A DNA stretch of 64,000 bases from a virus. The stretch lies in the IMG/VR virus record IMGVR_UViG_3300017987_000005, positions 41,157 through 105,156 of that record; one strand, 5' to 3'. Within the stretch, counting starts at the first letter, position 1, and the number at the start of each line of letters is the position of its first letter. Shown here piece after piece: positions 1 to 43,030 of the stretch. The translations under genes and the position numbers were made by a program. The notes under the pieces are model-generated. The model was not told where the DNA came from and ran no database searches. It saw only the letters and a program-made list of their open reading frames with translations.

Positions 1-374
1 TTCTTAATCTTTGTGCGCTCATCCTCATTCGTGAAATAATCGACAAGTATCTTATGGGGATTCCCGTAACTCTTTCTGAATATAATTAAAATCCCCCCTC
101 TTTTTCCTCCGCCGTCTCGATAATCAACGATTATCATATCTCCATGAACAAGTCCCGGCACAAGATTCTTTGTTGTGAATGATTTCTTGTTATACCCAAA
201 ACGCTTCTCGTACATTGGATTACGAAGAAGACGGTCAATCTTCGCACACACATTCCGTCGTATCCGCCGCTTAAACGTATGCGCAGCATGTTCCCCCGAG
301 TCAGAGTTCTTCAGTACAACACTGACGACAGCTTTAGCTGAGCGCATAAAAGCTTTGAGAACAGTATCGCTCAC
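1..374 (-). CDS. hypothetical protein, partial (runs off left edge)
   Basis: GTG at 372-374 overlaps the TGA of 371..871; my translation MSDTVLKAFMRSAK... stays open to position 1. Confidence 0.6.
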   Translation of the reverse strand, partial: MSDTVLKAFMRSAKAVVSVVLKNSDSGEHAAHTFKRRIRRNVCAKIDRLLRNPMYEKRFGYNKKSFTTKNLVPGLVHGDMIIVDYRDGGGKRGGILIIFRKSYGNPHKILVDYFTNEDERTKIK

Positions 375-871
375 GATTTACCTTTCCCCATAATGTCAAG
401 AAGTTTCTGTAAATTATCCGCATGCTGTAACAGCTTATCCAATACTTTTTTAACTGGGCTGACGTCCACTTTCATGTCGTGCTCCCCGATAAACTCCAGG
501 GCGAGCTTGCACGAAGAAAATGTTATCTGATATTCGTTGTCATCATAATGGAAGTATATCTCTTCTTCGCGATTCAAATAAAATCCGCCATGATGCATCC
601 CGTCATAAATGAGGTCAAAAAACGGGTCAAGCGATTCGTTGTCTTTGGGGTCAAGTACGAGGCATCCTTCTGCATGACCCTCGCGCAAAACCCACTCTAC
701 GCATCCAACAAACTCATCAAGAAATAACGCAGTCGCAGCCTCCTCTACTTCGGGGCTCATTTTCATTGCTTCGTCCCAGTACGGGCGAGCGAGGCCGTTT
801 GCTTTATCGTTCAACTCCTGCTGCTTCTTTCGAAGCTCCTTATATCTATCTCGTAAAGCAGACATAATCAC
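371..871 (-). CDS. hypothetical phage protein
   Basis: 166-aa ORF, SD GGAGAG upstream, tightly packed operon. Confidence 0.75.
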   Translation of the reverse strand: MIMSALRDRYKELRKKQQELNDKANGLARPYWDEAMKMSPEVEEAATALFLDEFVGCVEWVLREGHAEGCLVLDPKDNESLDPFFDLIYDGMHHGGFYLNREEEIYFHYDDNEYQITFSSCKLALEFIGEHDMKVDVSPVKKVLDKLLQHADNLQKLLDIMGKGKS

Positions 872-875
872 TCTC

Positions 876-1361
876 CTAAACTATATGGACGTCTTCGCTA
901 CCGTCAGATTTTTTGATTGTGATTTTTGCAAGTGGCGTGTTGTCCTTCGGAGGCCCGTCCTCTTTTGGCTCAATGACGGCTCCGGTCTCGGGATACTCTC
1001 CTCCGAGGGTATACTCAAGTTCCGGTCCATCAAATTCCCCGTACGCCATCCCATCCTGATACATTGCTCGCAAAATAGACAGCCACGGCTCCTGGACATA
1101 ATAATAAAACTGGTTCTCATGACGTCCGAGACTCCCGTCAGGATGACGGAGCAGAACAAGGTCAGTACCGAACGCTCCGGCTTTCTTCCTTACTTGGCAG
1201 ACATATCCGACATACATACTCCACCCGCGCTCTCCATGATGATTCCCATGCTGTAACGCGGTTATAACATATCGTCCCGGCTCGGGGTGAGTACTAAGAC
1301 CCACTCCGAACTCAGGGTCTTTTGAGTCAATAATCTTCTTAAGAACTTTTTCGTCCATCAC
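876..1361 (-). CDS. hypothetical phage protein
   Basis: 161-aa ORF, SD AGGAGAG, overlaps upstream gene. Confidence 0.75.
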   Translation of the reverse strand: MMDEKVLKKIIDSKDPEFGVGLSTHPEPGRYVITALQHGNHHGERGWSMYVGYVCQVRKKAGAFGTDLVLLRHPDGSLGRHENQFYYYVQEPWLSILRAMYQDGMAYGEFDGPELEYTLGGEYPETGAVIEPKEDGPPKDNTPLAKITIKKSDGSEDVHIV

Positions 1362-1872
1362 ACTCTCCTAATCCGTTATTAAACCACTTCCCCGATGAAG
1401 GTATCATCCGAGATGCTAATGAATACATAAATACTCTAACTTGTTCGTCAGCTTCTTCTTTTGTACTTGTTCCGAATATTGTCATATTATAACTGCCCCA
1501 CTTTACGCTTTTCAGAAATATCCTAAATACGCAGATGGCATATCCGTCGTGCGGGTCACTGACATACTCTTCCTTCTCATAGTACGGGCATATCACTGCT
1601 ATGCGAAGAATCCCCTGACAAAGGTCAATCTCCTTTATGGAATCAGCTCCGACTACAGCGTGCCCCTCCTCAAGCTCATTATATAACGCGCTAGCCAACT
1701 CGGTCTTCAAGATAGTCTCTATCTTGTCAATTATCCTGAATCCGTGTTCAAGCGCATTATCATCGAGACCGTAAATCGCTTCCTCGATAGCAAATGCTAT
1801 CGATGTCTCAATCTCTCCGAATAAGTCCGAATCCAGGGGTCGCATCCTGCTTCTCCAATTTTCCATTATCAT
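1339..1872 (-). CDS. WFNN-tag protein
   Basis: ends ...GKWFNNGLGECDGRKSS; true start uncertain because of overlap with upstream ORF. Confidence 0.7.
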   Translation of the reverse strand: MIMENWRSRMRPLDSDLFGEIETSIAFAIEEAIYGLDDNALEHGFRIIDKIETILKTELASALYNELEEGHAVVGADSIKEIDLCQGILRIAVICPYYEKEEYVSDPHDGYAICVFRIFLKSVKWGSYNMTIFGTSTKEEADEQVRVFMYSLASRMIPSSGKWFNNGLGECDGRKSS

Positions 1873-2221
1873 ACCATCGCGCTTCCGGCGCGACCATGTT
1901 CTTCAACGACACGTGCGAAATAATATACTTTTTATCAACTCTCCATCTGAATCCGATTCCCGGATTCGTAATCATAACTTTCACATGCGCATCATAAAAT
2001 TCCTCATGCCACTGCGTGCTCGGATACACTATCTGTACTTTAACTGCAACGTGGCACTCGTTCTCAATAACGGGAACTTCACTCAAACGCTTCTCAATGT
2101 GCTTCTTCAGGTTATACTCAGGCTGCTCGTCAGCCCAAACAAAATCCGATAGCTTATCAAATGAAATCTCGTCAAGAATTCGATTCACGTTAGTTTGTAC
2201 TACATCGCTCCAACTCATCAA
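1808..2221 (-). CDS. WFNN-tag protein (WYDN variant)
   Basis: ends ...ARWYDNGKLEK... Confidence 0.7.
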   Translation of the reverse strand: MMSWSDVVQTNVNRILDEISFDKLSDFVWADEQPEYNLKKHIEKRLSEVPVIENECHVAVKVQIVYPSTQWHEEFYDAHVKVMITNPGIGFRWRVDKKYIISHVSLKNMVAPEARWYDNGKLEKQDATPGFGLIRRD

Positions 2222-2583
2222 GAAACTCCGACTCCATTGTCAAACCACGCTCTGCTCATGTCGCATCTGGCAGGGTTATTCACGTCAACAAACGGCGCGG
2301 CACACTGATAGCACAACTCCGATGTCGGACTGTCAGGTCCTCCTCCGGCATAGGCGGACTTGCGAACATAATAATACTCTTCTCTCTTACGTATCTGTGC
2401 TCCACACGAATCGCAAAATTCCTCGTTATCAGATATCACTGGATTAACGATGAAGCTTGTGCGTAATCCAGAGGCGCGTCCGGCAGCAATCTTTTCAAAA
2501 GCCCTTACCGCCGTAGCAACTCTATCCCGGAAAGAAGAGCGTTTCGGGTGCTTTAGATATCGCTTCCACGCTTCTTTACGCAT
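2218..2583 (-). CDS. Zn-finger WFNN-tag protein
   Basis: CDSC...CYQC; ends WFDNGVGVS. Confidence 0.75.
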   Translation of the reverse strand: MRKEAWKRYLKHPKRSSFRDRVATAVRAFEKIAAGRASGLRTSFIVNPVISDNEEFCDSCGAQIRKREEYYYVRKSAYAGGGPDSPTSELCYQCAAPFVDVNNPARCDMSRAWFDNGVGVS

Positions 2584-2585
2584 AC

Positions 2586-2960
2586 TCAGTCCTTCTTATT
2601 ATTAAACCATCCGCGCGTACGAACACGTCCGCACGGAAACTCCATATTCAACTCGTACGTATCTCCAGCTTCCAACACTTGTATCGACACCTTCGCTCGT
2701 AACAGGTTGTTAGCAAGACTTTTCTCGGTGTTATTCCGGCGACTGCACTCAACTGTCCATCTATTAATCTTGTTTCTATTAAACAGCTCCCGACACCTCT
2801 CCTGAAGAATGGTGCGGTAATTCTGTATCGATACGATGTCCGCAGGTTCATATTCGAAATGCTTTCCGGCTTCCATGAACTCGTCCTGGAGATTCTCTAT
2901 AAAACTTTCCGCATCTATCTTGCGCGCTATCTTTTTACGCTTCGAAAACTTAGCCATCAC
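2586..2960 (-). CDS. WFNN-tag protein resembling tail-sheath C-terminal domain
   Basis: VECSRRNNTEKSLANNLLRAKVSIQ resembles the sheath motif V.CD..NNT...I..N.L.A...IQ; ends WFNNKKD. Confidence 0.6.
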   Translation of the reverse strand: MMAKFSKRKKIARKIDAESFIENLQDEFMEAGKHFEYEPADIVSIQNYRTILQERCRELFNRNKINRWTVECSRRNNTEKSLANNLLRAKVSIQVLEAGDTYELNMEFPCGRVRTRGWFNNKKD

Positions 2961-3208
2961 ATCTTCCCGTTATTAAACCACTTTTTCGGACCAGCATGAT
3001 ATTCTGAATAACAGCAATGACACACAACAACGGTGTGAACAATATCGCAATCAACGCGAGGATTGTATGTCGAGTTCTCAACTACGTGCAGCATTTCTCC
3101 GTAACCGATATTACCGGCGCACTTCTGACACGTCGAACCCTCCAAAGCTTCGCACACAATCGAGCTTCGGTCTGCATCCCTTAATAAATATCTGGTATAA
3201 CTGCTCAC
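2957..3208 (-). CDS. Zn-finger WFNN-tag protein
   Basis: CQKC...CHCC; ends WFNNGKM. Confidence 0.75.
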   Translation of the reverse strand: MSSYTRYLLRDADRSSIVCEALEGSTCQKCAGNIGYGEMLHVVENSTYNPRVDCDIVHTVVVCHCCYSEYHAGPKKWFNNGKM

Positions 3209-3756
3209 AAGCTCCTCCGGTTATTAAACCACGTCAAAGGAACGGGTACAACGAACGTCCCGTTCGGGCACTTAAGTCCAAAACGTACTGACTTATACTC
3301 ATCCGTCTCCGTCATCCCCTGGACGACAATCTTCAATACAAAATCTTCGCGAGCTTCCGTATATACGCGGAACTCGTCAATACTTATCCCATAGTATTTC
3401 GAGATAGACTTCTTTAGCGTCCTATCAAACTCAACTGAAGGGTTCTTCACTCCCGTAAACGCCATTCTGTCAAGTATGTCCTGATGCGCGTCGGCGGCTA
3501 ATTTATGCAGAGTGCTTATCAGCGTATCTGATTCAAGCATCTCCTTAAACATTTTCTTTATCGGTCCTCTTGACGCTGCTTTGGACTCTTCTCCGAGTAC
3601 GTCTTCGATAGCTGTCCACGATTCTCCCATGTACATATACATCGTATTAGTCGTAGCGTCGTAATGCAGGTCTCCCATGTTAGGCGACTTGGGAAAACTC
3701 CCGTCCCCATATCCGTACGACGGCCCTTCCTTAGACACACTCACAGCACTTCCCAT
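3205..3756 (-). CDS. WFNN-tag protein with tail-fibre-like PxxGDLHYD..MYMY.G.SW repeat
   Basis: start moved to ATG 3756 (MGSAVSV); ends WFNNRRSL. Confidence 0.65.
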   Translation of the reverse strand: MGSAVSVSKEGPSYGYGDGSFPKSPNMGDLHYDATTNTMYMYMGESWTAIEDVLGEESKAASRGPIKKMFKEMLESDTLISTLHKLAADAHQDILDRMAFTGVKNPSVEFDRTLKKSISKYYGISIDEFRVYTEAREDFVLKIVVQGMTETDEYKSVRFGLKCPNGTFVVPVPLTWFNNRRSL

Positions 3757-4180
3757 TGTTAAACCAATCCTTATTCGGTGCATGGTGATATCTGCGAAGG
3801 TAAATCCGCATCTCATCAGGCTTGTCCCCTATCTCGTTGTCATAGCAGTGTCGGCACAGGTACGCACAATCAGAATCCGTCTCAGCATCGCACTCCACTT
3901 TGACAGCAAACATGTCGGGCTTAAGCGCGTTTCCGCACAACATGCAGAACTCATCCTTCCGCATTACATGACTCTCAGTGTATACGCGGTAATCAGTCTC
4001 CTGCTTCTTATACTTCACTGCGCACAGCGTACAGACTATTTTTGAGCGGGAAGGCCCGCGTCTTTTCCCGATAATGTAAAATCCCGGCATATCACGAATC
4101 GGCACGAGACAATCCATGCACGTATACTGGTCATGGTCTTCTTCCATCCCTTTTGTCATAACGTATACTGGATGGTCCAT
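3731..4180 (-). CDS. double Zn-finger WFNN-tag protein
   Basis: CMDC..CTLC and CMLC..CRHC; ends WFNNGKCCECV. Confidence 0.75.
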   Translation of the reverse strand: MDHPVYVMTKGMEEDHDQYTCMDCLVPIRDMPGFYIIGKRRGPSRSKIVCTLCAVKYKKQETDYRVYTESHVMRKDEFCMLCGNALKPDMFAVKVECDAETDSDCAYLCRHCYDNEIGDKPDEMRIYLRRYHHAPNKDWFNNGKCCECV

Positions 4181-4605
4181 TATCGCTCACTCCTGTTATT
4201 AAACCACGCATTCGGAATAGCCGGCTCCACAGGCGGCTCGACTCTGAGATATTTAGCAGTGCACCATATGCATCTGAATCCGTCTCTCCGAAGGTCCTGC
4301 TTTCCTTTATACACGATGAACATATACTTCGGTGAATCCTCAAGCGGTATTACTTCTCCGCACGCTTGGCACGTCGGCTCTTCCTCAGACGTCCAGTCAG
4401 TCCGCGAAATAGTATACTGTCTGCTGGTCCCTTTATTGAACTCGTCTATCGCTTCACGTATCCGCTGCTGGAATACTTTCCACGGGTCAACAATACTCCA
4501 GGGGTCTCCTCCACAACGGCAGAAGTATCCCTCGTATGTCTGTTCCCCACACTCCGGGCACGGACGAAGCATTCTATCAGTCCCCATCACGCATCCCGTT
4601 ATCAA
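4180..4605 (-). CDS. Zn-finger WFNN-tag protein
   Basis: CPEC..CRC, CQAC..CIWC; ends WFNNRSER. Confidence 0.75.
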   Translation of the reverse strand: MITGCVMGTDRMLRPCPECGEQTYEGYFCRCGGDPWSIVDPWKVFQQRIREAIDEFNKGTSRQYTISRTDWTSEEEPTCQACGEVIPLEDSPKYMFIVYKGKQDLRRDGFRCIWCTAKYLRVEPPVEPAIPNAWFNNRSER

Positions 4606-4768
4606 ACCAAGCTCCCGAACACTTCCGGCGCTTCAGGTTCTCAGCATACACGATGAACTCGGTAAGGGCTTCCTCCCCCATCTCCTTACATTCGTGTATC
4701 GTCAGGTCATACTCAAAAGAAGCAAACGCTGACAATGCGTCGAAATTCACTTTTCGTTTCTTATTCAC
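4577..4768 (-). CDS. small WFNN-tag protein
   Basis: 63 aa, SD GGGAGAG; ends WFDNGMRDGD. Confidence 0.65.
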   Translation of the reverse strand: MNKKRKVNFDALSAFASFEYDLTIHECKEMGEEALTEFIVYAENLKRRKCSGAWFDNGMRDGD

Positions 4769-5193
4769 ACTGCTCTCCCATTATTAAACCAAAACATCTC
4801 CATCGGGACAAACTTAAATTCCCGAAGGACATATCTGCTCTTTCCAAACTCGTCTTTGAACGACACTTTCACAATGACTTTGTTATACAGGCGTCGTCCG
4901 CACATCGCATCATCAACAGCAAGAACAGTAAATCCCTCCGGCAGCGGAGGTCTAATCTCATTATTGAGCTTTATCTTCGCAAGGCTCCGATAACGCTTTG
5001 CATTATGAATCCATCTGTTCCTGCGGACATGTTTATTGACGCGTATCAGAGCAGCATCAATCTGCGCGTTCCAATCCTCATCCCGTACATACATCCCGGC
5101 ATCCATTATTAAACCACAACATCTTCTCCGGAACAAACTTGAACTTCCGTATGGCAAGTCGTCTGCTTCCGGCATCGTTCGTAAATCTGACAA
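4765..5193 (-). CDS. WFNN-tag protein, paralogue of 5078..5437
   Basis: ...REFKFVPMEMFWFNNGRAV; true start probably near 5100 (MDAG/MYVR). Confidence 0.65.
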   Translation of the reverse strand: MSDLRTMPEADDLPYGSSSLFRRRCCGLIMDAGMYVRDEDWNAQIDAALIRVNKHVRRNRWIHNAKRYRSLAKIKLNNEIRPPLPEGFTVLAVDDAMCGRRLYNKVIVKVSFKDEFGKSRYVLREFKFVPMEMFWFNNGRAV

Positions 5194-12610: not shown

Positions 12611-12674
12611 GCGCTAAATAAAAGAACTTTCTACCGGGCGGCGCACAGCCGTGGAACCTTGCAATTGATTGCAA

Positions 12675-24849: not shown

Positions 24850-24877
24850 ATTATATCATATAAATGATATTTGTCAA
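24850..24877 (-). promoter_or_regulatory. sigma70-type promoter
   Basis: TTGACA-16-TG.TATAAT. Confidence 0.8.
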
Positions 24878-26545: not shown

Positions 26546-26561
26546 TTGCAAGTGATTGCAA
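26546..26561. promoter_or_regulatory. TTGCAA-N4-TTGCAA palindrome between promoter and RBS
   Basis: TTGCAAGTGATTGCAA; one of at least 12 copies. Confidence 0.65.
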
Positions 26562-26582: not shown

Positions 26583-26610
26583 ATTATATCATATAAAAGT
26601 AATTAGTCAA
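26583..26610 (-). promoter_or_regulatory. sigma70-type promoter
   Basis: TTGACT-16-TG.TATAAT. Confidence 0.75.
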
Positions 26611-27140: not shown

Positions 27141-27584
27141 CTATCCCGTAACCGCGTCCAAGAACTTCATCATACTTCTATTACCTAGCGCACTCACGCA
27201 GCCATCCCAAAAGGGCACTTCGATGTGCATTAAGACTGCATTGTCAAGTTTCCGCATCAGGTACAGGATGTGGCCCGAATACTTGTCGTTCTTCTCGAAC
27301 TGTTCATCCTGAACCGATATCATCGCGAATGCTTTGAGAACATCCGTGATAATCTGAATAGCCGGCTTCGATAGTGCGACCTCACTCTCAATAACTATGA
27401 TTGGCTGTCTACCCGACACTGTCTTGAGGTCGGTAACTACTTTCTGTATTCCATACATCCCGAGCACCGTCAACACGTTGGTCATCCGGTCACTTATGAC
27501 GACCAGCTCCCTGTATTCATTATCCGGCAACCCGTTCTCACGAAGAACGTTCAGGAGTTTCTCTACATTTTTGTTCTGCATCAA
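27141..27584 (-). CDS. hypothetical protein
   Basis: 147-aa ORF, overlapping stop/start. Confidence 0.7.
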   Translation of the reverse strand: MMQNKNVEKLLNVLRENGLPDNEYRELVVISDRMTNVLTVLGMYGIQKVVTDLKTVSGRQPIIVIESEVALSKPAIQIITDVLKAFAMISVQDEQFEKNDKYSGHILYLMRKLDNAVLMHIEVPFWDGCVSALGNRSMMKFLDAVTG

Positions 27585-28465
27585 CCACTCCAGTGAAAGA
27601 AATAGTTTTCAGGGTCATCCTGCGCCAAAACATAGTCGCAGACTTCTTCAACGACTTCAAGCGCTTCGATGTACCACTGGTATGCTTCCTTATTTTCAGC
27701 GATAGCATAAATGGTAGGTATCTCCCCGCCCATGAAATGTTTAGATGTCCCCTTTACGAATCCGAATACCTTGATTCCCTCAAGAAAATAGTCTCCCGTA
27801 CCCGTGGAATATGAGGAAAATCCGCTCGGCTTTCCATCATCACCCTTGTGATTCTCCAACTGTTTGACGAACTCCTGCATCGCCTCCTGCTTTGAATAGG
27901 CAGGTTTGCGAGGATTCTCGTCGCCTCGCTTGGTATCGCTTTCAGTCAATCCCTTCAACCACGAAATGTTGACATCCATTTCCATTGCCCGGTACTTCCC
28001 GAAGTCGCTTTCAGCAAGTTTCTTCAACTGCTCAATAGCGAGCCGGGCGCGTTCTTTCGACGCCTCCCAGTCAGGTGTGAACATATATTCATCATTATCT
28101 TTCCCGAAGATGTCATAAAGGTCGGGAACCCCCAGGTCACGAAATACTGAGTTCATCCCGCCACTGTTGTATGAACTGCGGAAATATCCGACCGTAAACA
28201 TGTGGTCAGGGTGAATTTTGCTCGGTTCGTTAACCCCTTCTTCAATATGGTCAGGGACGCTCCCCCACTCATCCAACCCGAGCGACTTAGCCAGCTCATC
28301 TGTTTTCTTGCTGACCGCATCTCGTTCTTCGTCGGTGAGGTCGTCATACTCGCCGGCTTCCTTCCACATCTTTTCAGATTTCTTCTCGTACTCTTCCTGT
28401 TTCTCGCGCCACGGCTTCAAATCCTCTGTAGCGTGATAAAGATAGATATCCAAGCCCATTTTCAC
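27581..28465 (-). CDS. conserved phage protein (MGLD.YL type)
   Basis: MGLDIYLY...GYFRSSYNSGG...FHWSG. Confidence 0.75.
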   Translation of the reverse strand: MKMGLDIYLYHATEDLKPWREKQEEYEKKSEKMWKEAGEYDDLTDEERDAVSKKTDELAKSLGLDEWGSVPDHIEEGVNEPSKIHPDHMFTVGYFRSSYNSGGMNSVFRDLGVPDLYDIFGKDNDEYMFTPDWEASKERARLAIEQLKKLAESDFGKYRAMEMDVNISWLKGLTESDTKRGDENPRKPAYSKQEAMQEFVKQLENHKGDDGKPSGFSSYSTGTGDYFLEGIKVFGFVKGTSKHFMGGEIPTIYAIAENKEAYQWYIEALEVVEEVCDYVLAQDDPENYFFHWSG

Positions 28466-28505
28466 TCTCCTTCTGAAAAAGTCCTGTCTCCAAAGTAATA
28501 CTTAT

Positions 28506-28533
28506 ATTATAGCATATAAATGTAATATGTCAA
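28506..28533 (-). promoter_or_regulatory. sigma70-type promoter
   Basis: TTGACA-16-TG.TATAAT. Confidence 0.8.
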
Positions 28534-28542
28534 GGTCAAAAT

Positions 28543-29196
28543 AAAAAAATTAAGGGCCGGTGACAGAAAGGACCGCTAATCCCTCTCCGTCCCGGCCCCC
28601 GGCAGGTCTCTGACGCTCGGCTTCAGCTTACCACTAGGGGAATCGGCTTCGCATCTATCTGACGGCACGTTCAACTGCGGCCTCTGATAGGCATGGTCTT
28701 TGGCAACGGTCTCGTTTAGGCACGTCTGCTTAATCGGAGAAACTGGCACTTAGACATCTACCCCTCGCAATGAGGCGTCTGACAGTCCCGCCCTTCATCG
28801 TCGGTCCCTATGCGCGGGCCTTGACAACTACTCGGCGACACGGGTGGGGGTTTGCGCACTGTCCACCTTTTTTTAATCACTCTAAATATAAAAGAGCTTA
28901 GCACCTTCGACCTCTCCAGGTGTACCTGGTTAATGAGGCGTAGCAGGTTCGGCTCTATTGCGGTCGTAAAGGGGGGCAAGGGCATCCCGAAGGCTCTCCC
29001 TTCGGTTTTCGGAACCACTAATCTCCGGCTCCTCCACCCCCCAGTCATACTGCATTGGACTGTTTGTATAATAGTCCACGGCTCACCCTTACGTCGAATG
29101 GAGGGAGAATCTATCAGCCCATTTATTTAAGGGCGAGTTCTATACGCCGTCGCTTGTCAGGGAGCCTAAGCAGGGGTGGTCTGTTTTCAAAGAGCT
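28543..29196 (-). ncRNA. candidate large structured non-coding RNA (~650 nt)
   Basis: no credible CDS; boxA-like GCTCTTTGAAAAC at 5' end; several hairpins; 3' long G-U-containing stem plus U-tract. Confidence 0.55.
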
Positions 29197-29325
29197 ATTG
29201 CAATCACTTGCAATAATCCTCAGAGCCGCTCAGAGGCGTTCTAAGGCTTTAATAGGTCAGTATGAATAACGGCTCATTTCAAGGTCACTTCTCTTAATCT
29301 GGGCTCATTCTGGGCTCACAGCACC

Positions 29326-29751
29326 CTAAATTAAGAACTTCTCCTTGCAACAGGAGCACTGAAACAGAGAATCATCCCTTGAAGGCAATTCGTACTCGTC
29401 CACCCGCTCTACATATTTGCAGTATGGGCAGGTGACGTCAGCCATCTCTATCCACTCGACTTCGCCACGCAAAACAGCGATGTGTTTACGTTTTCCTGAG
29501 AACTTCAGTCCCCGTACTCTGCCATCCCGGAACTTATACGTTCCGCTGAAGTGTATGCAACACTCACTTGACACGTACTCACCGTCCTGAAATACGGTGA
29601 CTTCAGCATCTTTGTGGCAAAACGGACACTCTGCCGTGTGGTGGTATGCAGATTCAGTATTTCCCGTGCACTGCGACTCGACTTCGATAGTCGTGGTGAC
29701 CAGAGCTTTCTCTTCATCCTTAACGGCTACTTCCCCAAATAATGTTTCCAT
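29326..29751 (-). CDS. Zn-ribbon hypothetical protein
   Basis: CPFC, CPYC, CSCC; start METLF with SD GGAGGGTGA. Confidence 0.7.
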   Translation of the reverse strand: METLFGEVAVKDEEKALVTTTIEVESQCTGNTESAYHHTAECPFCHKDAEVTVFQDGEYVSSECCIHFSGTYKFRDGRVRGLKFSGKRKHIAVLRGEVEWIEMADVTCPYCKYVERVDEYELPSRDDSLFQCSCCKEKFLI

Positions 29752-30581: not shown

Positions 30582-30609
30582 ATTATATCATATAATCATA
30601 ATATGTCAA
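30582..30609 (-). promoter_or_regulatory. sigma70-type promoter
   Basis: TTGACA-16-TG.TATAAT. Confidence 0.8.
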
Positions 30610-30618
30610 GTCTTTTTT

Positions 30619-33063
30619 TCACATCCCCGCCTTTCGCACACTTTTTAACCCCTTCAAGAAGCCGGATATCTTCGTGTACGCAGTCTTAACAAGTTCGCTC
30701 ACCTTATCAACTTTGCAATGGTTCGTATAGTAACGACCGACACTTGAGTACTGAACTCCGATGCAGAACAGATTGATTTCGCCGCTATCCTCTATCTGTC
30801 GGGCAACCTGTATCAAATCTTCATCGGGATTGTATCGAGCATACCCCGCCGGCGCTCCATCGCAGATTACGATTAACAGTTTCTTGCTTTCCTTGCGCTC
30901 TGCCAATCTCCTGGCGGCCCATCGTAAACTCTCACCGTCAAGGTTCTGATAAAGCAGTACCTCGGGCAGACTTCCCATCGCACCTTTGGTCTTATGGTCT
31001 AATTTCCGTTCAAACGGTTTTACGACATAGCCGAGCAGTGGGCTCACTCTGGTGTACCCTTCTTTGTAGTGATGGCTCCCGCCTCCGACTTGGGTGAATC
31101 CGAGAACTTCAAACGGTACCCCGACTAAGTTCAATGTTTCCGACAGAATAATAGCAACATCCGTTGCCGTCTGTATCTTGCTTCCCGACATCGAACCGGA
31201 GCAGTCAACGAGCAGAGTAACCGCAGCATCAAGTTCAATCTTCCGCCGCTTCTGCTTGAACAAATCTTCTTCTTTGAATGCGACCCTGAATAAATCCCTG
31301 TCATTAATCGTACCCTGCTTCTGTCGCTTTGTCCACTTCTTAGGATTGCCGAGCAAGTCCATCAGCAGTCTCCGCCGGAGCACATTAACATCGCCCCTCA
31401 GTTCTTGGACATTCTTAGTGTATCGCTCGAACCCCCGCTCCCTCGCGTCCGCCGCATGCGTATGCGGATATACTTTTCCCAACGCAGCCGGGTCTCTCTC
31501 AGCAACAAGGTCTACCTCCCGGTCGTCATTGATGTAAGGTATCACAGTTTCCCCACGATAGCCGGAATCAACTTTGTCAGTAATAATCAGTTTGCTAACC
31601 TTATCATAAAGCACGCTTTCAGCAGTCACGCCCCCATCTGCTCCACTGCTCTGCTGAGCAATGCCTCCGATAGTTTCATCAAGTTTATCTTTAACTTCCT
31701 GCCGCTTCTCCTCGATGCTTTTTTCTTCTTCCTCTACCCCGTCTTCTTCACTCTCCTCACCATCAGGACTCCCGTCGCCATCACCGTCCCCTTCTTCGGC
31801 TTCCTCCTCACCCTCGTCATCATCAAAATCCTCATCCTCGCCATCATCATCCCAACCATCTTCCTCATAATCCTCTTCGCCCCACTCGTCCCAATCCTTT
31901 TCCTCTTCACCTTCCTCTTCGTCCTCTACCTCCCCTTCATCATCTGCTCCACTATCAGAACCTTCTCCATCAGAGGATGAATCCTCGGCCTCGTCTCCGT
32001 CTTCGCCTTCAGCAGAATCAGAAGTTCCCTCAGCCTCTTCAGTTTCTTCACTATCATCTCCGCCTCCTCCGGATTCATCTTCCCCTTCGCCGGCTCCTTC
32101 ATCTTCGCCCTCCTCACTGCAATCACTTGCAGAACTATCGTCACCTTTATCTTTTCTCATATCAATTTCTTCAACTTCCCCCGGACCGGAACTATCCTTT
32201 TCCTGCTCCCCCTCACCTTTACCTTCCCCGTCCTCGGATTTGTCGCTCTTGCTCTTTTTCCCCTTGCCTCCCTTTGAGGACTTCCCGCCAGACTCAGAAC
32301 TCTCACTATCCCCATCAGCCTCAGAAGAACTCCCCTGTCCCTGACCGGACTGGCTTTCCCCTTCCTGTCCTTCCTCACCCTCTCCCCCATACGGGTTCGG
32401 CACTTCGACCTGACTGATATAGTCCTTCAAAATTTCAGTCATTTCCATTGAGAGGTTAACTACCTCCTCAGTACTGCGAACTGACTTCGCCCGCTCCAAC
32501 TGCTCCTTCACCATGTCCACGAATTTCGGGTACATCGGGCTGACCTCTTCTCCACGACTGTCAATATACTCAATATCGTCCGGCCTGTGGGTTCTTGTCA
32601 TACGCATACCGAGCAGAAGCAGGGCACGTTCGTTATCATCGCAACCCTCCTTGTCTCGGATATTACTGCAAATGTCCTCTTTATAGAGCGCCTGATTGTG
32701 AATGAAGTCAAGGTTTCGGGCTACGCCGAGAGCCTTCTCCCCCATCAGCTTATCGACCCTGGCATCTTCCATTGCATTACTGAAAAAATGGACAATCCCC
32801 GCGCCGATTATTTTCTTCCGTTTGTAAACACCCATGTCGGTGTCATTAACGTGACCGGACTCATGGTCAACAAGACCTCGAAGCATATTGATTGCTTCAT
32901 CACTCAAGTCCGCCGGAAGTGGTGGCAGATGTATGATACCATGCTTGTTAGGCTCAGTATATGCTCCGCCCTTCGTGTCGTAAAGGATACGAACACGTTT
33001 GCCGGCACAGACACGTGCAGCCGCTTGCTGTCCGACTTCTAACATTCTTGCTAACTTACTCAT
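30619..33063 (-). CDS. cobT: CobT-like vWA (MIDAS) protein with N-terminal HExxH domain and long acidic linker
   Basis: HESGH; NAMEDARVD; E/D/G/S-rich middle; LLVDCSGSM, EVLGFT, DGESL.WA..RL, LIVICDGAP. Confidence 0.8.
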   Translation of the reverse strand: MSKLARMLEVGQQAAARVCAGKRVRILYDTKGGAYTEPNKHGIIHLPPLPADLSDEAINMLRGLVDHESGHVNDTDMGVYKRKKIIGAGIVHFFSNAMEDARVDKLMGEKALGVARNLDFIHNQALYKEDICSNIRDKEGCDDNERALLLLGMRMTRTHRPDDIEYIDSRGEEVSPMYPKFVDMVKEQLERAKSVRSTEEVVNLSMEMTEILKDYISQVEVPNPYGGEGEEGQEGESQSGQGQGSSSEADGDSESSESGGKSSKGGKGKKSKSDKSEDGEGKGEGEQEKDSSGPGEVEEIDMRKDKGDDSSASDCSEEGEDEGAGEGEDESGGGGDDSEETEEAEGTSDSAEGEDGDEAEDSSSDGEGSDSGADDEGEVEDEEEGEEEKDWDEWGEEDYEEDGWDDDGEDEDFDDDEGEEEAEEGDGDGDGSPDGEESEEDGVEEEEKSIEEKRQEVKDKLDETIGGIAQQSSGADGGVTAESVLYDKVSKLIITDKVDSGYRGETVIPYINDDREVDLVAERDPAALGKVYPHTHAADARERGFERYTKNVQELRGDVNVLRRRLLMDLLGNPKKWTKRQKQGTINDRDLFRVAFKEEDLFKQKRRKIELDAAVTLLVDCSGSMSGSKIQTATDVAIILSETLNLVGVPFEVLGFTQVGGGSHHYKEGYTRVSPLLGYVVKPFERKLDHKTKGAMGSLPEVLLYQNLDGESLRWAARRLAERKESKKLLIVICDGAPAGYARYNPDEDLIQVARQIEDSGEINLFCIGVQYSSVGRYYTNHCKVDKVSELVKTAYTKISGFLKGLKSVRKAGM

Positions 33064-33111
33064 TTGTTCACCCTCCGAATATATGAGTATCTTAACTAAA
33101 TATACAATTAT

Positions 33112-33139
33112 ATTATATCATATAATTGCAATAAGTCAA
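33112..33139 (-). promoter_or_regulatory. sigma70-type promoter
   Basis: TTGACT-16-TG.TATAAT. Confidence 0.75.
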
Positions 33140-33226
33140 GCAGATTTTCAAACAACTTCTCACCCTTAGTTAAGGGGCGGAGGTCTGCATCCCCCGCCCC
33201 TTCATTTGCGAAGAACGGAGGGTGAC

Positions 33227-34408
33227 CTATTCTTCGCTCGTGCCCATCCTGTCGCTCATATCAATCGGGTCTTTAGCTATCCGCTGATAAATCTCAGCAA
33301 GCGCCATCGCGTCCTCGTCCGTGCATTTATTCAGCACCGCGACTTTGAACGCATCGACCATCGTCCATCCCTTCCCGATAAGCTTCGCCGTGGCGATACT
33401 TTTCCGAAGGCTGAATGTAGTCATAATATCCTGACCGAAGCTCGCACGTGCAGCCGTGGCAATCTTCGTTAATGATTTCGCTTGCGCCTGTCCGATTCCG
33501 GTTCTCCTGCGGAGCACCTTTATCTCGTCTGACTGTGACAGGTAATTGATGCGGAACACTCCCAACCATCTATCAAGGAAGGCTTCGTCAAGTATCTGCC
33601 GACTCCGATAGATGTCTGCTTGGTCACCTCGTCCTGCGGTATTCGAGGTGGCGACCACTGCGAATCCTGGAGCCGCTTTGACGCGCTCACCGTGGTTCTT
33701 GGAAACAATGAGGTCTTTACCTTCCAGAACTCGTTGGAGTACGAACAGAATTCCCTGCTCCGCCACGTCCAACTCGTCAATCTGAAGCACCAATCCCTCA
33801 CGCATTGACTGCGTAAGCGGACCATCGGTAAATACGGTTTCCATCACACCGTCACCGTTGTCTTTCAGACTGATGTGTCCGATGAAGTCATCGACCGTGG
33901 TTTCCTCGGTCATATTGAATGGAAGTACTTTCCGACCGAGCTTGTGTTTGATAACACGTTCAAGCAGGTCTGTTTTCCCCGTGCCGGCAGGTCCGATTAA
34001 GAGAACGGGAAACCCCTCCTCAATCAGTTCGACTACCTTGGGGGTGCATTCGGGATAGATATAGAAATCCGAATCGGCATCGCCGTCGAACTCCTTACCT
34101 TCCCTGAGTGTGGGTGTCGGCTGACCCTTAATCCCTTTATAGGATTTAGGAGTAACCTTGACATTGAGAGTACTCTCAGTCACCCACGCAAGTTTCACAC
34201 CGGGAATCGTAAGGTCGGTTATTTCAGAAATGACGTCTGCCTTGAGACCCTTCTCACGCAAATCATCATCCGCGACCTCGAAATCGGTGCACCCGACTTC
34301 AGCGATAAACTCGTGCAGAACGAGCTTCGCCTCTTCCTTACGCATCTGGTCGATTGCCGACTCAGACTTTGTGGCAAATCCTGCCAGTTTTTTGTCGTCC
34401 ATCTTCAC
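33227..34408 (-). CDS. cobS: CobS/CbbQ/MoxR-type AAA+ ATPase
   Basis: GPAGTGKT Walker A, LQIDELD Walker B, ATSNT.G.GD, LDEAFLDRW, FSLRK; next to vWA partner. Confidence 0.85.
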   Translation of the reverse strand: MKMDDKKLAGFATKSESAIDQMRKEEAKLVLHEFIAEVGCTDFEVADDDLREKGLKADVISEITDLTIPGVKLAWVTESTLNVKVTPKSYKGIKGQPTPTLREGKEFDGDADSDFYIYPECTPKVVELIEEGFPVLLIGPAGTGKTDLLERVIKHKLGRKVLPFNMTEETTVDDFIGHISLKDNGDGVMETVFTDGPLTQSMREGLVLQIDELDVAEQGILFVLQRVLEGKDLIVSKNHGERVKAAPGFAVVATSNTAGRGDQADIYRSRQILDEAFLDRWLGVFRINYLSQSDEIKVLRRRTGIGQAQAKSLTKIATAARASFGQDIMTTFSLRKSIATAKLIGKGWTMVDAFKVAVLNKCTDEDAMALAEIYQRIAKDPIDMSDRMGTSEE

Positions 34409-37148: not shown

Positions 37149-38008
37149 TTCTTAAAGCTCCAGCACTCTTCTCTAAAGGGACATTCGCGGGCCCGCGTCG
37201 TCGATTTTCTGCTGCACTTACGCTGGCACATGATGACTGGGTCCGGTTCGCCGGCTGCTACACACTCTTCGATGGCGTCAATGGTCCTGAATGCATTCTC
37301 AACCAGGTCCTCACGTTTATCCTCAATGACGGCACGGTATCTGTAGTCATCCCGGCAAATAAATAGGTATACGCACTTATCCACACCCAGCAGCTCCATG
37401 TAAATACTCGCCTGGGTCCTCTCCCTGGCGTTGGGGGCATGAGTCTTCTCCCAGGTGTTCCTGGATTTACTCTTCATCTCAAGAATCATGTCATCCAGGG
37501 AAGGTATCCTGATGATTCCATCAGAATGACCCCGAATCTTGTGTTCGTGGCTGAGAACTTGTGGTTCCAGGTATTGCAATCGATTGCAACTGCACTCCGG
37601 GCACTTCCCAGGGAGGAACGTCTTCTCAAACTCTGCCCCGCATTTGGGGCATTCCCAACTTCCCCACAGGATTCCCGCAGGTCCCAGGACCCGGTCCTGG
37701 AAAAAGTTGTGGGCCTGGGTCCCCGCAGCAGCCATTAACGACAGCGGCAGGTTAGGCTCCTCAATAAGAACTGGCGGGCGGCGTATCCGCAACCAGAACT
37801 CCGCGACTGGGCACATGTCGTGGATACGACTGGGATGGTAATAATCGTCGAATATCCGTCTCTCCGGCTTCGACATCAGCTCAGTGACAGCCTTCTCGAC
37901 GGTTTCCTCCGGCGTCTCCTTCACCCACTCCGGCTCTTCGTAAACCTCCCCGGCGCGTTTTTTCTGGTTATGCGTTCTCAGGTCGCCGAAACTGAATCCA
38001 TCACTCAT
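37145..38008 (-). CDS. Cas4-like PD-(D/E)XK exonuclease with Zn-ribbon insert
   Basis: PS...MCP, GTQAH, GHSDG..ILEMK, QASIYM, C-terminal C...C..CPF...C; start ATG 38008 coupled to upstream stop. Confidence 0.85.
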   Translation of the reverse strand: MSDGFSFGDLRTHNQKKRAGEVYEEPEWVKETPEETVEKAVTELMSKPERRIFDDYYHPSRIHDMCPVAEFWLRIRRPPVLIEEPNLPLSLMAAAGTQAHNFFQDRVLGPAGILWGSWECPKCGAEFEKTFLPGKCPECSCNRLQYLEPQVLSHEHKIRGHSDGIIRIPSLDDMILEMKSKSRNTWEKTHAPNARERTQASIYMELLGVDKCVYLFICRDDYRYRAVIEDKREDLVENAFRTIDAIEECVAAGEPDPVIMCQRKCSRKSTTRARECPFREECWSFKK

Positions 38009-41529: not shown

Positions 41530-43030
41530 TCAATACCTCCCTCAAAAAAAGGTTAAAAGAGCATTTGCAATCACTTGCAATCCTGCTCACTCGAACTCTA
41601 TCCAGAATTATAAACCTACCTGGTCCATCTTCCATTGTCTACTCCTACACGGTGGAAACCACCTGAATACCTGGGGCCGGCGTATCCGGGTGCCGGCTAA
41701 TTTGCAATTGATTGCAATCTGCCGGTGCCCGACCAATATCAAACCATACGCGCCTCATGCTGCCTGCCCCATTGCAATCATTTTCAAACGGCCTGGAAGA
41801 CCTGAAGATGAAATGACCGCCGGCTTAAATAACCCGCCTGAATCTAATTCCACTTTTCCGGGCCCGACCACCGGGATAAATTGGTTGATTTTCAAATAAT
41901 TAAATACCACACGCAAAGCCGAATACACACGGGCCCTACGTAATCCGCGTAACCGAATACACATGGGCCTTAGAACCGACTCTAAAAGCCGAATACACAT
42001 GGCGAAAATACACATGAACCATTTAATTTCTTTTTCACCCCGAATTACCGACTGATAAATTAGCGGAATTTCACTTAATTTATTGCTGGCGCATACGAAT
42101 TGCTGGTCACGGTATCCCGATTTGCCGGTCCTTATAACGCCAATGTTAAATACACATGGGCTTATTAATGTTTTCAATTCGAAATGATAATATAATTCTC
42201 TAAGACCGCCAATACCCCCATTTATAATATGTGACATTTTTGTCACCATTCGCCTGCACGTAAACCGGTTGATAACATTTTTTACGAACTGATAAATGCC
42301 ATAAATCGCATTTATATGCCTGTAGCGCACACAAATTGCTAGAACATAGAGGGTATATAGTACCGTTTTATGGGCATAATACCGCATATAGGGGCGTATT
42401 TGAGCGGTTCGGTGTAAAGCGGTGTGTAAAGTATGGTATACTGTGGTCGTGTGGGGGGACGGTATGGTAAGCGGGACTGGGGTAGTATGTTTATTATTTA
42501 TAGGGGTTGTTCTTGTTTCCCGACTTTCAGGAGCGTGGACGTGAGTGCTTAGAAGGGCTGTGGGCATTGCAATCGATTGCAACGGGTTCATTACGCTCCT
42601 CTCTGTAAAGTTACCGGCTATCTGATGCGGATATTGAAATAAATACTGTAGTAGTACGTTATCCCTCTATGGTATGTGTATGTATAGTTGAGGTAATAGA
42701 TTCCCGGTAAAGCGGTTCCTATCCACTCCTCATCGTGTGCAAAATCGTGGTGTCCGTTGGTATCTTCCTGGGGTGGTCTCGGTATAAGATTGTCCCGACT
42801 CCGTGGACGCTTATCCCGGTCATTATCCCGCATCTATACTCTCCAGACGATTGCAATCACGTGCAAACAAAATCCAATATTGTGACATCGCTGTGATATG
42901 TCACAACGCTTAAAACCCCGCTTTTCTAATATAGAACGTTACGTATTGAGAAATACTGTGATTCCGCTGTGACAAAGCGAAATGTCACAAAACCTCACAG
43001 TGACATAAACATTTGACAATAATTTCAAAT
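41530..43030. repeat. repeat-rich non-coding region
   Basis: 5 TTGCAA-N4 palindromes, 5 AATACACA cores, 3 GTGACA/TGTCAC inverted repeats. Confidence 0.65.

Follow-up and report, generated by a model that had tools for sequence, protein, structure and literature searches.

An uncultured, tRNA-rich phage with a genome of about 184 kb and its closest relatives probably carry the gene for a multi-domain structured non-coding RNA of about 670 nt that belongs to an uncatalogued family. Its sequence and predicted fold make a new family of large structured RNAs of phages the most likely reading, one that is comparable in kind to GOLLD and ROOL and unrelated to both; the comparison had been drawn in an earlier note on this DNA and is apt, and the RNA matches neither of the two models. 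Few RNAs of bacteria and phages combine a length above about 500 nt with a complex conserved fold, and each new class (OLE, GOLLD, ROOL, HEARO, raiA) opened new biology or structural principles. The reading as a structured non-coding RNA, which the earlier note had put forward, is adopted here because the stretch is conserved, its mismatches are flat over codon positions, its helices covary and its G·U pairs are in excess on the minus strand specifically.

The DNA analyzed, called the window, is a stretch of 64,000 nucleotides that corresponds to bases 41157-105156 of the 183,648-bp IMG/VR virus record IMGVR_UViG_3300017987_000005, which is rated complete. The genome encodes 45 tRNA genes, all on the minus strand. 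The gap between the genes flanking the RNA covers window positions 28460-29325 (866 nt), and both flanking genes are whole, with ends and starts as in the relatives. The locus is organized as follows (window positions):

30582..30609, minus strand: nearest upstream consensus early promoter, TTGACA-16-TGnTATAAT
29326-29751, minus strand: upstream flanking gene, 141 aa, with two CxxC pairs (Zn-ribbon)
29213 to 28538, minus strand: candidate RNA gene, about 670 nt
28506..28533, minus strand: perfect sigma-70 promoter of the next early unit, outside the RNA and marking its 3' boundary
27581-28459, minus strand: downstream flanking gene, 292 aa

The 141-aa protein remained an orphan in the protein homologue search. 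Searches for the functions of neighbouring genes (Pfam, PHROGs, ESM Atlas) gave nothing useful beyond CobT-like and CobS/MoxR-like genes 1.3-5 kb upstream. These lie within 30619-34408 on the minus strand, immediately upstream of the operon with the RNA at its end, and encode a CobT-like VWA protein of 814 aa with an acidic low-complexity insert of about 250 residues and a CobS/MoxR-like AAA+ ATPase.

The gap had been described earlier as poor in ORFs, and indeed TAA, TAG and TGA occur in all six frames of its 866 nt and no reading frame is conserved. Recoding of stop codons was rejected as no single recoding opens any frame. Counted by position modulo 3, mismatches between the RNA stretch and three relatives are flat (45/48/50, 27/22/29 and 15/24/25), whereas in the neighbouring gene the third position is in excess, as is usual for coding DNA (78/64/133, 72/66/129 and 85/72/138). 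Insertions and deletions in the RNA stretch are mostly not multiples of three and every frame is broken. Public gene calls inside the RNA consist of a 57-aa ORF and a 75-96-aa ORF (28576-28749 and 28758-29048, minus strand; a called gene in L011 and P0129 in the protein library). Both are probably false gene predictions; neither is kept in the relatives, and in a search of 1.84 billion representative proteins the sole match of the 96-aa ORF was the ORF itself. The comparison with the relatives demonstrates that the stretch codes for no protein and evolves under purifying selection.

As for known RNAs, no Rfam 15 family matches at the gathering score anywhere in the 64-kb window, and this holds for GOLLD, ROOL, OLE and HEARO, the models that had been recommended for the search. 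Within 28400-29400 three chance-level matches were obtained (E = 2.8-8.2, 11-15 bits), and across the four homologues described below none of the matches (E up to 5-10) recurs. By this measure the RNA belongs neither to GOLLD, ROOL, OLE, HEARO or raiA nor to any other family of Rfam 15, a library that we take to contain GOLLD and ROOL. A tmRNA was rejected: ARAGORN found none in the window or in the whole genome (-m, permuted forms included) and the tmRNA models of Rfam are silent. The stretch GGGCUGAU...AUUCGACG presumably recalls the 5' end of tmRNA; these words are not kept in the relative L013, and a tRNA-like domain is missing. RNase P RNA and group I and II introns were rejected as well, the one Rfam match being a 15-bit match to group II domain 5 (E = 3.1), a 41-nt model whose stem is much shortened here; an intron would need a split host gene, and both flanking genes are intact. 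The earlier statement that the stretch could not be assigned to tmRNA, RNase P or a group I intron therefore agrees with ARAGORN and Rfam 15. It is extremely improbable that the stretch arose by decay of a protein gene, or that it is a tmRNA, RNase P RNA or group I or II intron too divergent for the models to see: such an origin could appeal to the 57-aa and 75-96-aa ORFs placed here by gene callers, to the tmRNA-like words and to the weak domain-5-like match, but the ORFs are not kept in relatives, the words are not kept in L013, no Rfam match recurs, no tmRNA is found genome-wide and no host gene is split.

Relatives were reached through homologues of the 292-aa protein in short ENA contigs, and a search with an N-terminal fragment of the same protein gave L018. 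A homologue search had been proposed in the earlier note; blastn of the stretch against the phage collection gave no match, but the route via the 292-aa protein yielded four homologues with compensatory changes. These are metagenomic contigs that keep a homologous gene-free stretch upstream of the same 292-aa gene:

L013: full length; the C-terminus of the upstream Zn-ribbon gene is conserved too
L012: 3' two thirds of the RNA, positions 1-365; without K1 and D1, keeps D2 and D3
L014: 3' third of the RNA
L018: short variant, positions 1-276; domain C runs almost straight into the terminator, with about 300 nt missing

So far the family numbers five sequences, all environmental (sediment and seawater) and two of them full length; the samples behind L012-L014 and L018 are ERZ25073487, ERZ27256808 and ERZ27256810. 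Nucleotide identity in aligned columns is 71-78% for the RNA stretch vs 64-69% for the adjacent 292-aa gene, and the neighbouring proteins are 46-58% identical between the window and the relatives. The natural deletion variants L018 and L012 help to define a minimal core. More distant relatives of the 292-aa gene (e.g., L015) have no gap upstream, and in other contigs with this gene (L019, L020, L028-L030) there is no gap or the flank is too short. Neighbour proteins have no close relatives in IMG/VR, and the RNA is missing from nine distant loci there that have no more than the CobS-like ATPase in common with this region. IMG/VR was also scanned for patterns, and the terminator loop, loop plus promoter and palindrome plus boxA gave no match or five chance matches in unrelated DNA. 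A scan of JGI metagenomes with the domain C pattern gave two chance matches, both inside genes, and a scan of species-representative genomes with the hairpin 1 pattern gave seven chance matches, none of which was confirmed by the covariance model. The core covariance model did not match any of five distantly related phage records. Within the phage genome no paralogous copy of the RNA was found, the repeats being the promoter and the palindrome-boxA composite only. No RNA sequencing runs are listed for the sequence, and in four DNA runs it was found without variants, only as identical contigs or as three scraps of 151 nt.

The predicted architecture of the RNA, read from 5' to 3' on the minus strand, comprises the following elements:

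29049..29183, minus strand: 5' domain, partly resolved, covered by two sequences only
29077-29057, minus strand: hairpin in the 5' domain, GGACU/AGUCC, in L013 GGUUA/UAACU
28971..29042, minus strand: domain B, three-way multistem closed by G6/C6 (z = -2.7)
29027-29010, minus strand: hairpin 1 of domain B, loop AUUAGUGG closed by G·U
29005-28987, minus strand: hairpin 2 of domain B, CCGAAGG/CCTTCGG
28893..28956, minus strand: domain C, long hairpin of three helices split by conserved internal loops (z = -2.3)
28843..28867, minus strand: K1 hairpin, GGUGG/CCACC, with a conserved 13-nt loop
28789..28837, minus strand: D1 hairpin, UUGUC/GACGA, in L013 GCCAC/GUGGU
28601..28787, minus strand: variable 3' domain (D2/D3), closed by 28787-28782 with 28678-28673
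28552..28600, minus strand: terminal 20-bp hairpin with several G-U pairs, the terminator stem
28580-28573, minus strand: conserved apical loop AUUAGCGG of the terminal hairpin
28538..28551, minus strand: U tract of the terminator, UUAAUUUUUUUAUUUU, kept in 5/5 sequences

All structural elements that the earlier note had picked out by eye were recovered on the minus strand, exactly or shifted by at most 2 nt, namely the hairpins at 29077-29057, 29005-28987 (CCGAAGG/CCTTCGG) and 28929-28916, the last of which lies within the coordinates of domain C (28893-28956, minus strand), the G6/C6-closed multistem (29042-28971) and the terminal stem of about 20 bp with several G-U pairs (28600-28552), followed by the U tract down to 28538. 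The folding energy of the whole region is ordinary (z = -1.2 vs shuffles), but single parts do fold better than shuffles, namely the terminator (z = -4.8), the multistem (z = -2.7) and the internal-loop hairpin (z = -2.3). The case for more structure than expected by chance is made mainly by the relatives, which keep the helices through compensatory changes, so that the strongest support is comparative. The closing helix of domain B is GGGGGG/CCCCCC in the window vs AGAUGG/CCAUCU in L013, and the stem of hairpin 1 is CGGAG/UUCCG vs CAGGG/UCCUG, with an 8-nt loop AUUARUGG that is closed by G·U in both. In domain C, 7/14 pairs are compensatory across four sequences and the helices change in concert, from AGAGC/GCUCU to AUGGC/GCCAU, from ACCU/AGGU to AUCU/AGAU and AUCC/GGAU, and from GCCUC/GAGGU to GCUCU/AGAGU; its internal loops do not change, and the GCUAA in the 3' strand is invariant. 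Outside these domains, six nucleotides of the K1 loop (28859-28854) can pair with six of the D1 loop (28815-28810) with two double changes, GUGCGC with GCGCAU in the window and GCGCAC with GUGCGU in L013, and K1 and D1 are missing together from L012 and L018. The variable 3' domain is shortened in L013 and absent from L018, where the 3' half of the RNA is apparently dispensable. The core that is kept in every relative covering it consists of multistem B, hairpin C and terminal hairpin E. Its most conserved single-stranded parts are two AUUAGYGG loops, the apical loop AUUAGCGG of the terminal hairpin repeating the loop of hairpin 1, and the invariant GCUAA, to which UUAGC is complementary. A search of the phage genome for complementary targets of the AUUAGYGG loops gave 11 octamers and no pattern. 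A reading of the GGA hairpins as a CsrA sponge was rejected, as L014 is without GGA and GGA sits in a stem.

Aligned to a covariance model, the core (B and C) has 95.6% of its cells paired, and both sides changed in 11 of 32 pairs vs 3.6±1.5 in shuffles, none of 500 of which reached 11; in a control in which the partners were slid by 1-3 columns, 0-2 pairs had changed on both sides. A single sample series supplied two of the five sequences, which do not differ over about 85 nt, and L013 and L018 are identical across domain B, so that the independent covariation events behind these counts are few. In the alignment of window and L013, two or more compensatory pairs are present in six helices of 5 bp or longer, vs 0.54±0.78 such helices in column shuffles. 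Over four blocks with 72 pairs, 26 are compensatory and 7/244 cells are non-canonical (97% canonical), the structures having been predicted from the same alignments that were later used for this count and those given above. Compensatory changes beyond relatedness, the generic mark of a structured non-coding RNA, were thus found among five sequences. The helix cells of the four blocks contain 36 G·U vs 3 A·C, which argues that the fold belongs to the transcript of the minus strand and not to the DNA or the opposite strand. Taken together, the alignments establish predicted helices and one loop-loop pairing that are kept by compensatory changes fitting a minus-strand transcript alone.

The RNA appears to be embedded in a very regular array of short early units. 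Genome-wide there are 22 near-identical, near-perfect sigma-70 consensus early promoters (TTGAC[A/T]-N16 with TATGATATAAT), all on the minus strand, spaced by about 2 kb and each directly past a U-rich terminator. Besides the two promoters listed above (28506-28533 and 30582-30609), examples in the window, where they occur at 5770-36216 and beyond, are:

24850-24877, minus strand: consensus early promoter
26583-26610, minus strand: consensus early promoter
33112-33139, minus strand: consensus early promoter

The RNA ends in the same manner. Its terminal hairpin has a folding energy of -35.5 kcal/mol (z = -4.8), with 6/19 pairs compensatory over five sequences and 19 G·U cells, and together with the U tract it is a strong predicted intrinsic (Rho-independent) terminator with both features expected of one, a G+C-rich hairpin and a U tract directly behind it. 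A simple terminator scanner missed the stem at 28552-28600, presumably because the stem is bulged. The promoter at 28506-28533 begins 5 nt past the U tract. Promoter scans revealed no evident promoter of the RNA's own, and a sigma-70 promoter conserved in the 115-nt spacer upstream of the RNA was rejected, since none is common to the window and L013. Between the promoter at 30582-30609 and the RNA no terminator-like site was predicted. This promoter is probably the source of the transcript, which would contain three small genes (for proteins of 98, 166 and 141 aa) and then the RNA, so that an early operon with the RNA at its promoter-distal end is probable. With this arrangement the stretch could also be a long structured 3' UTR that acts only in cis, either stabilizing the upstream three-gene early mRNA against 3' exonucleases or insulating units from each other, with no independent RNA. 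The position directly behind the operon, the use of the operon's terminator, the failure to find an own promoter and the general layout of the genome, in which each early unit closes with a terminator placed right in front of the following promoter, all speak for it. However, a short terminator suffices for the other early units, while this stretch extends over about 670 nt and has conserved loops, several domains that covary and a loop-loop pairing that covaries too, the structure goes far beyond the needs of mRNA stabilization and the region is more conserved than neighbouring coding DNA. A function in cis alone is therefore quite unlikely.

At its 5' end, the RNA gene is preceded by a series of short sequence elements, one of which, the palindrome, recurs elsewhere in the window (last line):

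29298..29316, minus strand: direct repeat GAGCCCAGA-AT-GAGCCCAGA, in the 115-nt spacer just past the stop of the upstream gene
29198..29213, minus strand: 16-bp palindrome TTGCAA-GTGA-TTGCAA, TTGCAAGTGATTGCAA, identical in L013
29184..29195, minus strand: boxA-like word GCUCUUUGAAAA, identical in L013, the sole relative covering the 5' end
29196-29181, minus strand: sequence AGCTCTTTGAAAACAG holding the boxA-like word
12659-12674, 26546-26561, 37574-37589, 41565-41580, 41702-41717, 42567-42582: palindrome sites (examples of the 15 at 10317-61864 in the window)

The earlier note had reported a boxA-like 5' element right after a palindrome, and this order was found, with the palindrome at 29213-29198 followed by AGCTCTTTGAAAACAG at 29196-29181, both identical in L013. 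As RNA, the palindrome is predicted to form a hairpin of 6-9 bp with a GUGA loop. That it adjoins the RNA had been taken as a feature of the candidate; its presence and its identity in L013 stand, but it is not specific to the RNA. TTGCAA-N4-TTGCAA occurs at 15 sites in the 64-kb window vs 0.21 expected and at 28 sites genome-wide (at most one mismatch), with a centre that varies around TCGA (consensus TCGA/TCAC), in both orientations and often between early promoter and ribosome-binding site. Any copy would also form a 6-bp RNA hairpin. The palindrome resembles an operator in DNA to which a dimeric regulator encoded by the phage would bind, and the copy beside the RNA may concern the control of transcription rather than the RNA itself. 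Within the direct repeat, AGCCCAGA occurs at no other place in the genome, and L013 has a similar repeat; the repeat may serve to bind a protein or may extend the RNA at its 5' end. An element acting at the level of DNA, i.e., a replication origin, a packaging site or a cluster of protein sites whose hairpins are incidental or formed in single-stranded DNA, could draw on the unique direct repeat and on the one copy here of the operator-like palindrome that is found genome-wide. Yet the body is single-copy and repeat-free apart from these two elements, a terminator with U tract is present and the ratio of G·U to A·C cells shows that the fold works on one strand only, so that such an element is very improbable.

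The BoxA consensus of gamma-proteobacteria is GYTCTTTAANA and has an anti-Rho role (PMC5725501). GCTCTTTGAAA agrees with 10/11 positions of this consensus, with G for A at position 8; the consensus is gamma-proteobacterial and may not be that of the host. G at position 8 is presumably found in Bacillus-type boxA. The pattern GCTCTTT[AGT]A[AC] has four distinct copies in the genome, all on the sense strand and all in untranslated DNA, located before the RNA, in the leader of a leftward operon and in two inter-tRNA spacers of the 45-tRNA array:

41553-41562, minus strand: boxA-like word of the second composite, TTGCAAGTGATTGCAAT-GCTCTTTTAACC (41553-41580, minus strand)
record positions 183571-183580 (= 46-55): boxA-like word GCTCTTTGAA in an inter-tRNA spacer
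record positions 183196-183205: boxA-like word GCTCTTTGAC in an inter-tRNA spacer

By chance about one copy is expected on the minus strand, mostly inside genes, and the count in the window alone (2 vs 0.74 expected) is not above chance. All four copies are placed as BoxA elements are, promoter-proximal to long untranslated or Rho-sensitive transcripts. Since the boxA-like words all lie in untranslated stretches, their distribution is the one expected if the phage uses host Nus factors against Rho, and it fits a Nus-type protection of untranslated transcripts. A palindrome with GCTCTTT(G/T)AA within 1-2 nt occurs at two sites, the 5' end of the RNA and 41565-41580, and L013 has the same composite. 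The second composite is located in the leader of the first gene leftward from a 1.5-kb non-coding hub, where it heads a long operon in the way of a nut site. The tRNA island, with 45 genes for nearly all amino acids at record positions 62-4953 and 178191-183558 on the minus strand, crosses the ends of the record. The record's 'direct terminal repeat' measures only 123 bp (1-123 = 183526-183648) and interrupts the tRNA array, with tRNA-Pro on one side and tRNA-Leu on the other; instead of a physical genome end, it may represent the overlap of a circular or permuted assembly.

A hairpin and boxA upstream of a terminator, as at lambda nut sites, could also belong to a regulatory leader or attenuator, in which the fold or a bound factor decides between a stop at 28552-28600 and read-through, with the boxA-like site as nut-type antitermination signal. 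The same composite heads the leftward operon at 41553-41580, and UUAGC in the apical loop of the terminator is complementary to the invariant GCUAA of domain C. However, this pairing involves no competition with the terminator stem, the genes downstream are served by a perfect promoter of their own 5 nt past the U tract, and size and modularity exceed those of any known attenuator, which makes such a role highly improbable.

For the preferred reading, an independent structured RNA, the following course can be proposed. Early transcription would start at the promoter at 30582-30609, with the RNA as promoter-distal part after three small genes. The hairpin and the boxA-like word at the start of the RNA would load host Nus factors on RNA polymerase, sparing about 800 untranslated nt from termination by Rho and letting them fold during transcription, in the manner of rRNA operons, the same word being present in the phage tRNA array; the Rho-resistant elongation complex would perhaps assist folding. 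The RNA would be released at 28540-28550, possibly after 5' processing near 29213, and the mature RNA would act in trans as a folded particle, in which the AUUAGYGG loops and GCUAA may be docking points for tertiary contacts (UUAGC/GCUAA) or for a dimeric protein partner. A 45-tRNA phage invests heavily in translation, and the RNA is presumably early and shares its rRNA-style boxA-like signal with the tRNA array. If true, this would be a compact example of a phage borrowing the host Nus machinery for its own stable RNAs, and the RNA would be a new target for structural work on tertiary and quaternary RNA contacts.

A more tentative and rather unlikely extension is that the RNA self-assembles into an RNA-only particle (dimer, ring or cage) in the way found for ROOL and GOLLD, which would be a third solution, unrelated to these two, in a phage that has a near-complete set of tRNAs as well. 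The K1-D1 pairing and perhaps UUAGC/GCUAA between the two AUUAGYGG loops and domain C would then be intermolecular bridges. K1 and D1 are only about 5 nt apart and span, with the kissing helix, about 25 bp; a straight intramolecular kiss would be strained by this short spacing, which makes an intermolecular reading possible.

Among known systems, phage phi29 encodes a structured early RNA, the prohead RNA (pRNA), which needs covarying loop-loop pairings between hairpins to function. The RNA described here resembles it as a phage-encoded, presumably early structured RNA with a covarying loop-loop pairing; pRNA differs in that it has about 170 nt and a defined role in DNA packaging, whereas the present RNA shows no similarity to it in sequence or fold and no link to packaging genes. 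In rrn leaders, a hairpin is followed by boxA, the same order as here, and as in the boxB-boxA of rrn leaders and in lambda nut sites a short hairpin adjoins a GCUCUUU-type word before a long untranslated structured transcript. The present element differs in position 8, which is G or T and not A, and in its hairpin, which unlike boxB is a DNA palindrome found genome-wide in both orientations. GOLLD and ROOL, which are large ornate RNAs encoded by phages and prophages, usually lie beside tRNA islands, whereas the RNA described here is located about 65 kb from the tRNA island and ends a protein-coding early operon, matches no sequence or structure model of Rfam 15 and belongs to a tiny family of five environmental sequences. 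With GOLLD and ROOL it shares a length of several hundred nt, the encoding by phages, a multi-domain architecture with a conserved core and a variable region, covarying loop-loop pairings and the lack of a known function. The kissing loops of ROOL and GOLLD were first read from covariation as tertiary contacts and proved to be intermolecular bridges (PMC12286853).
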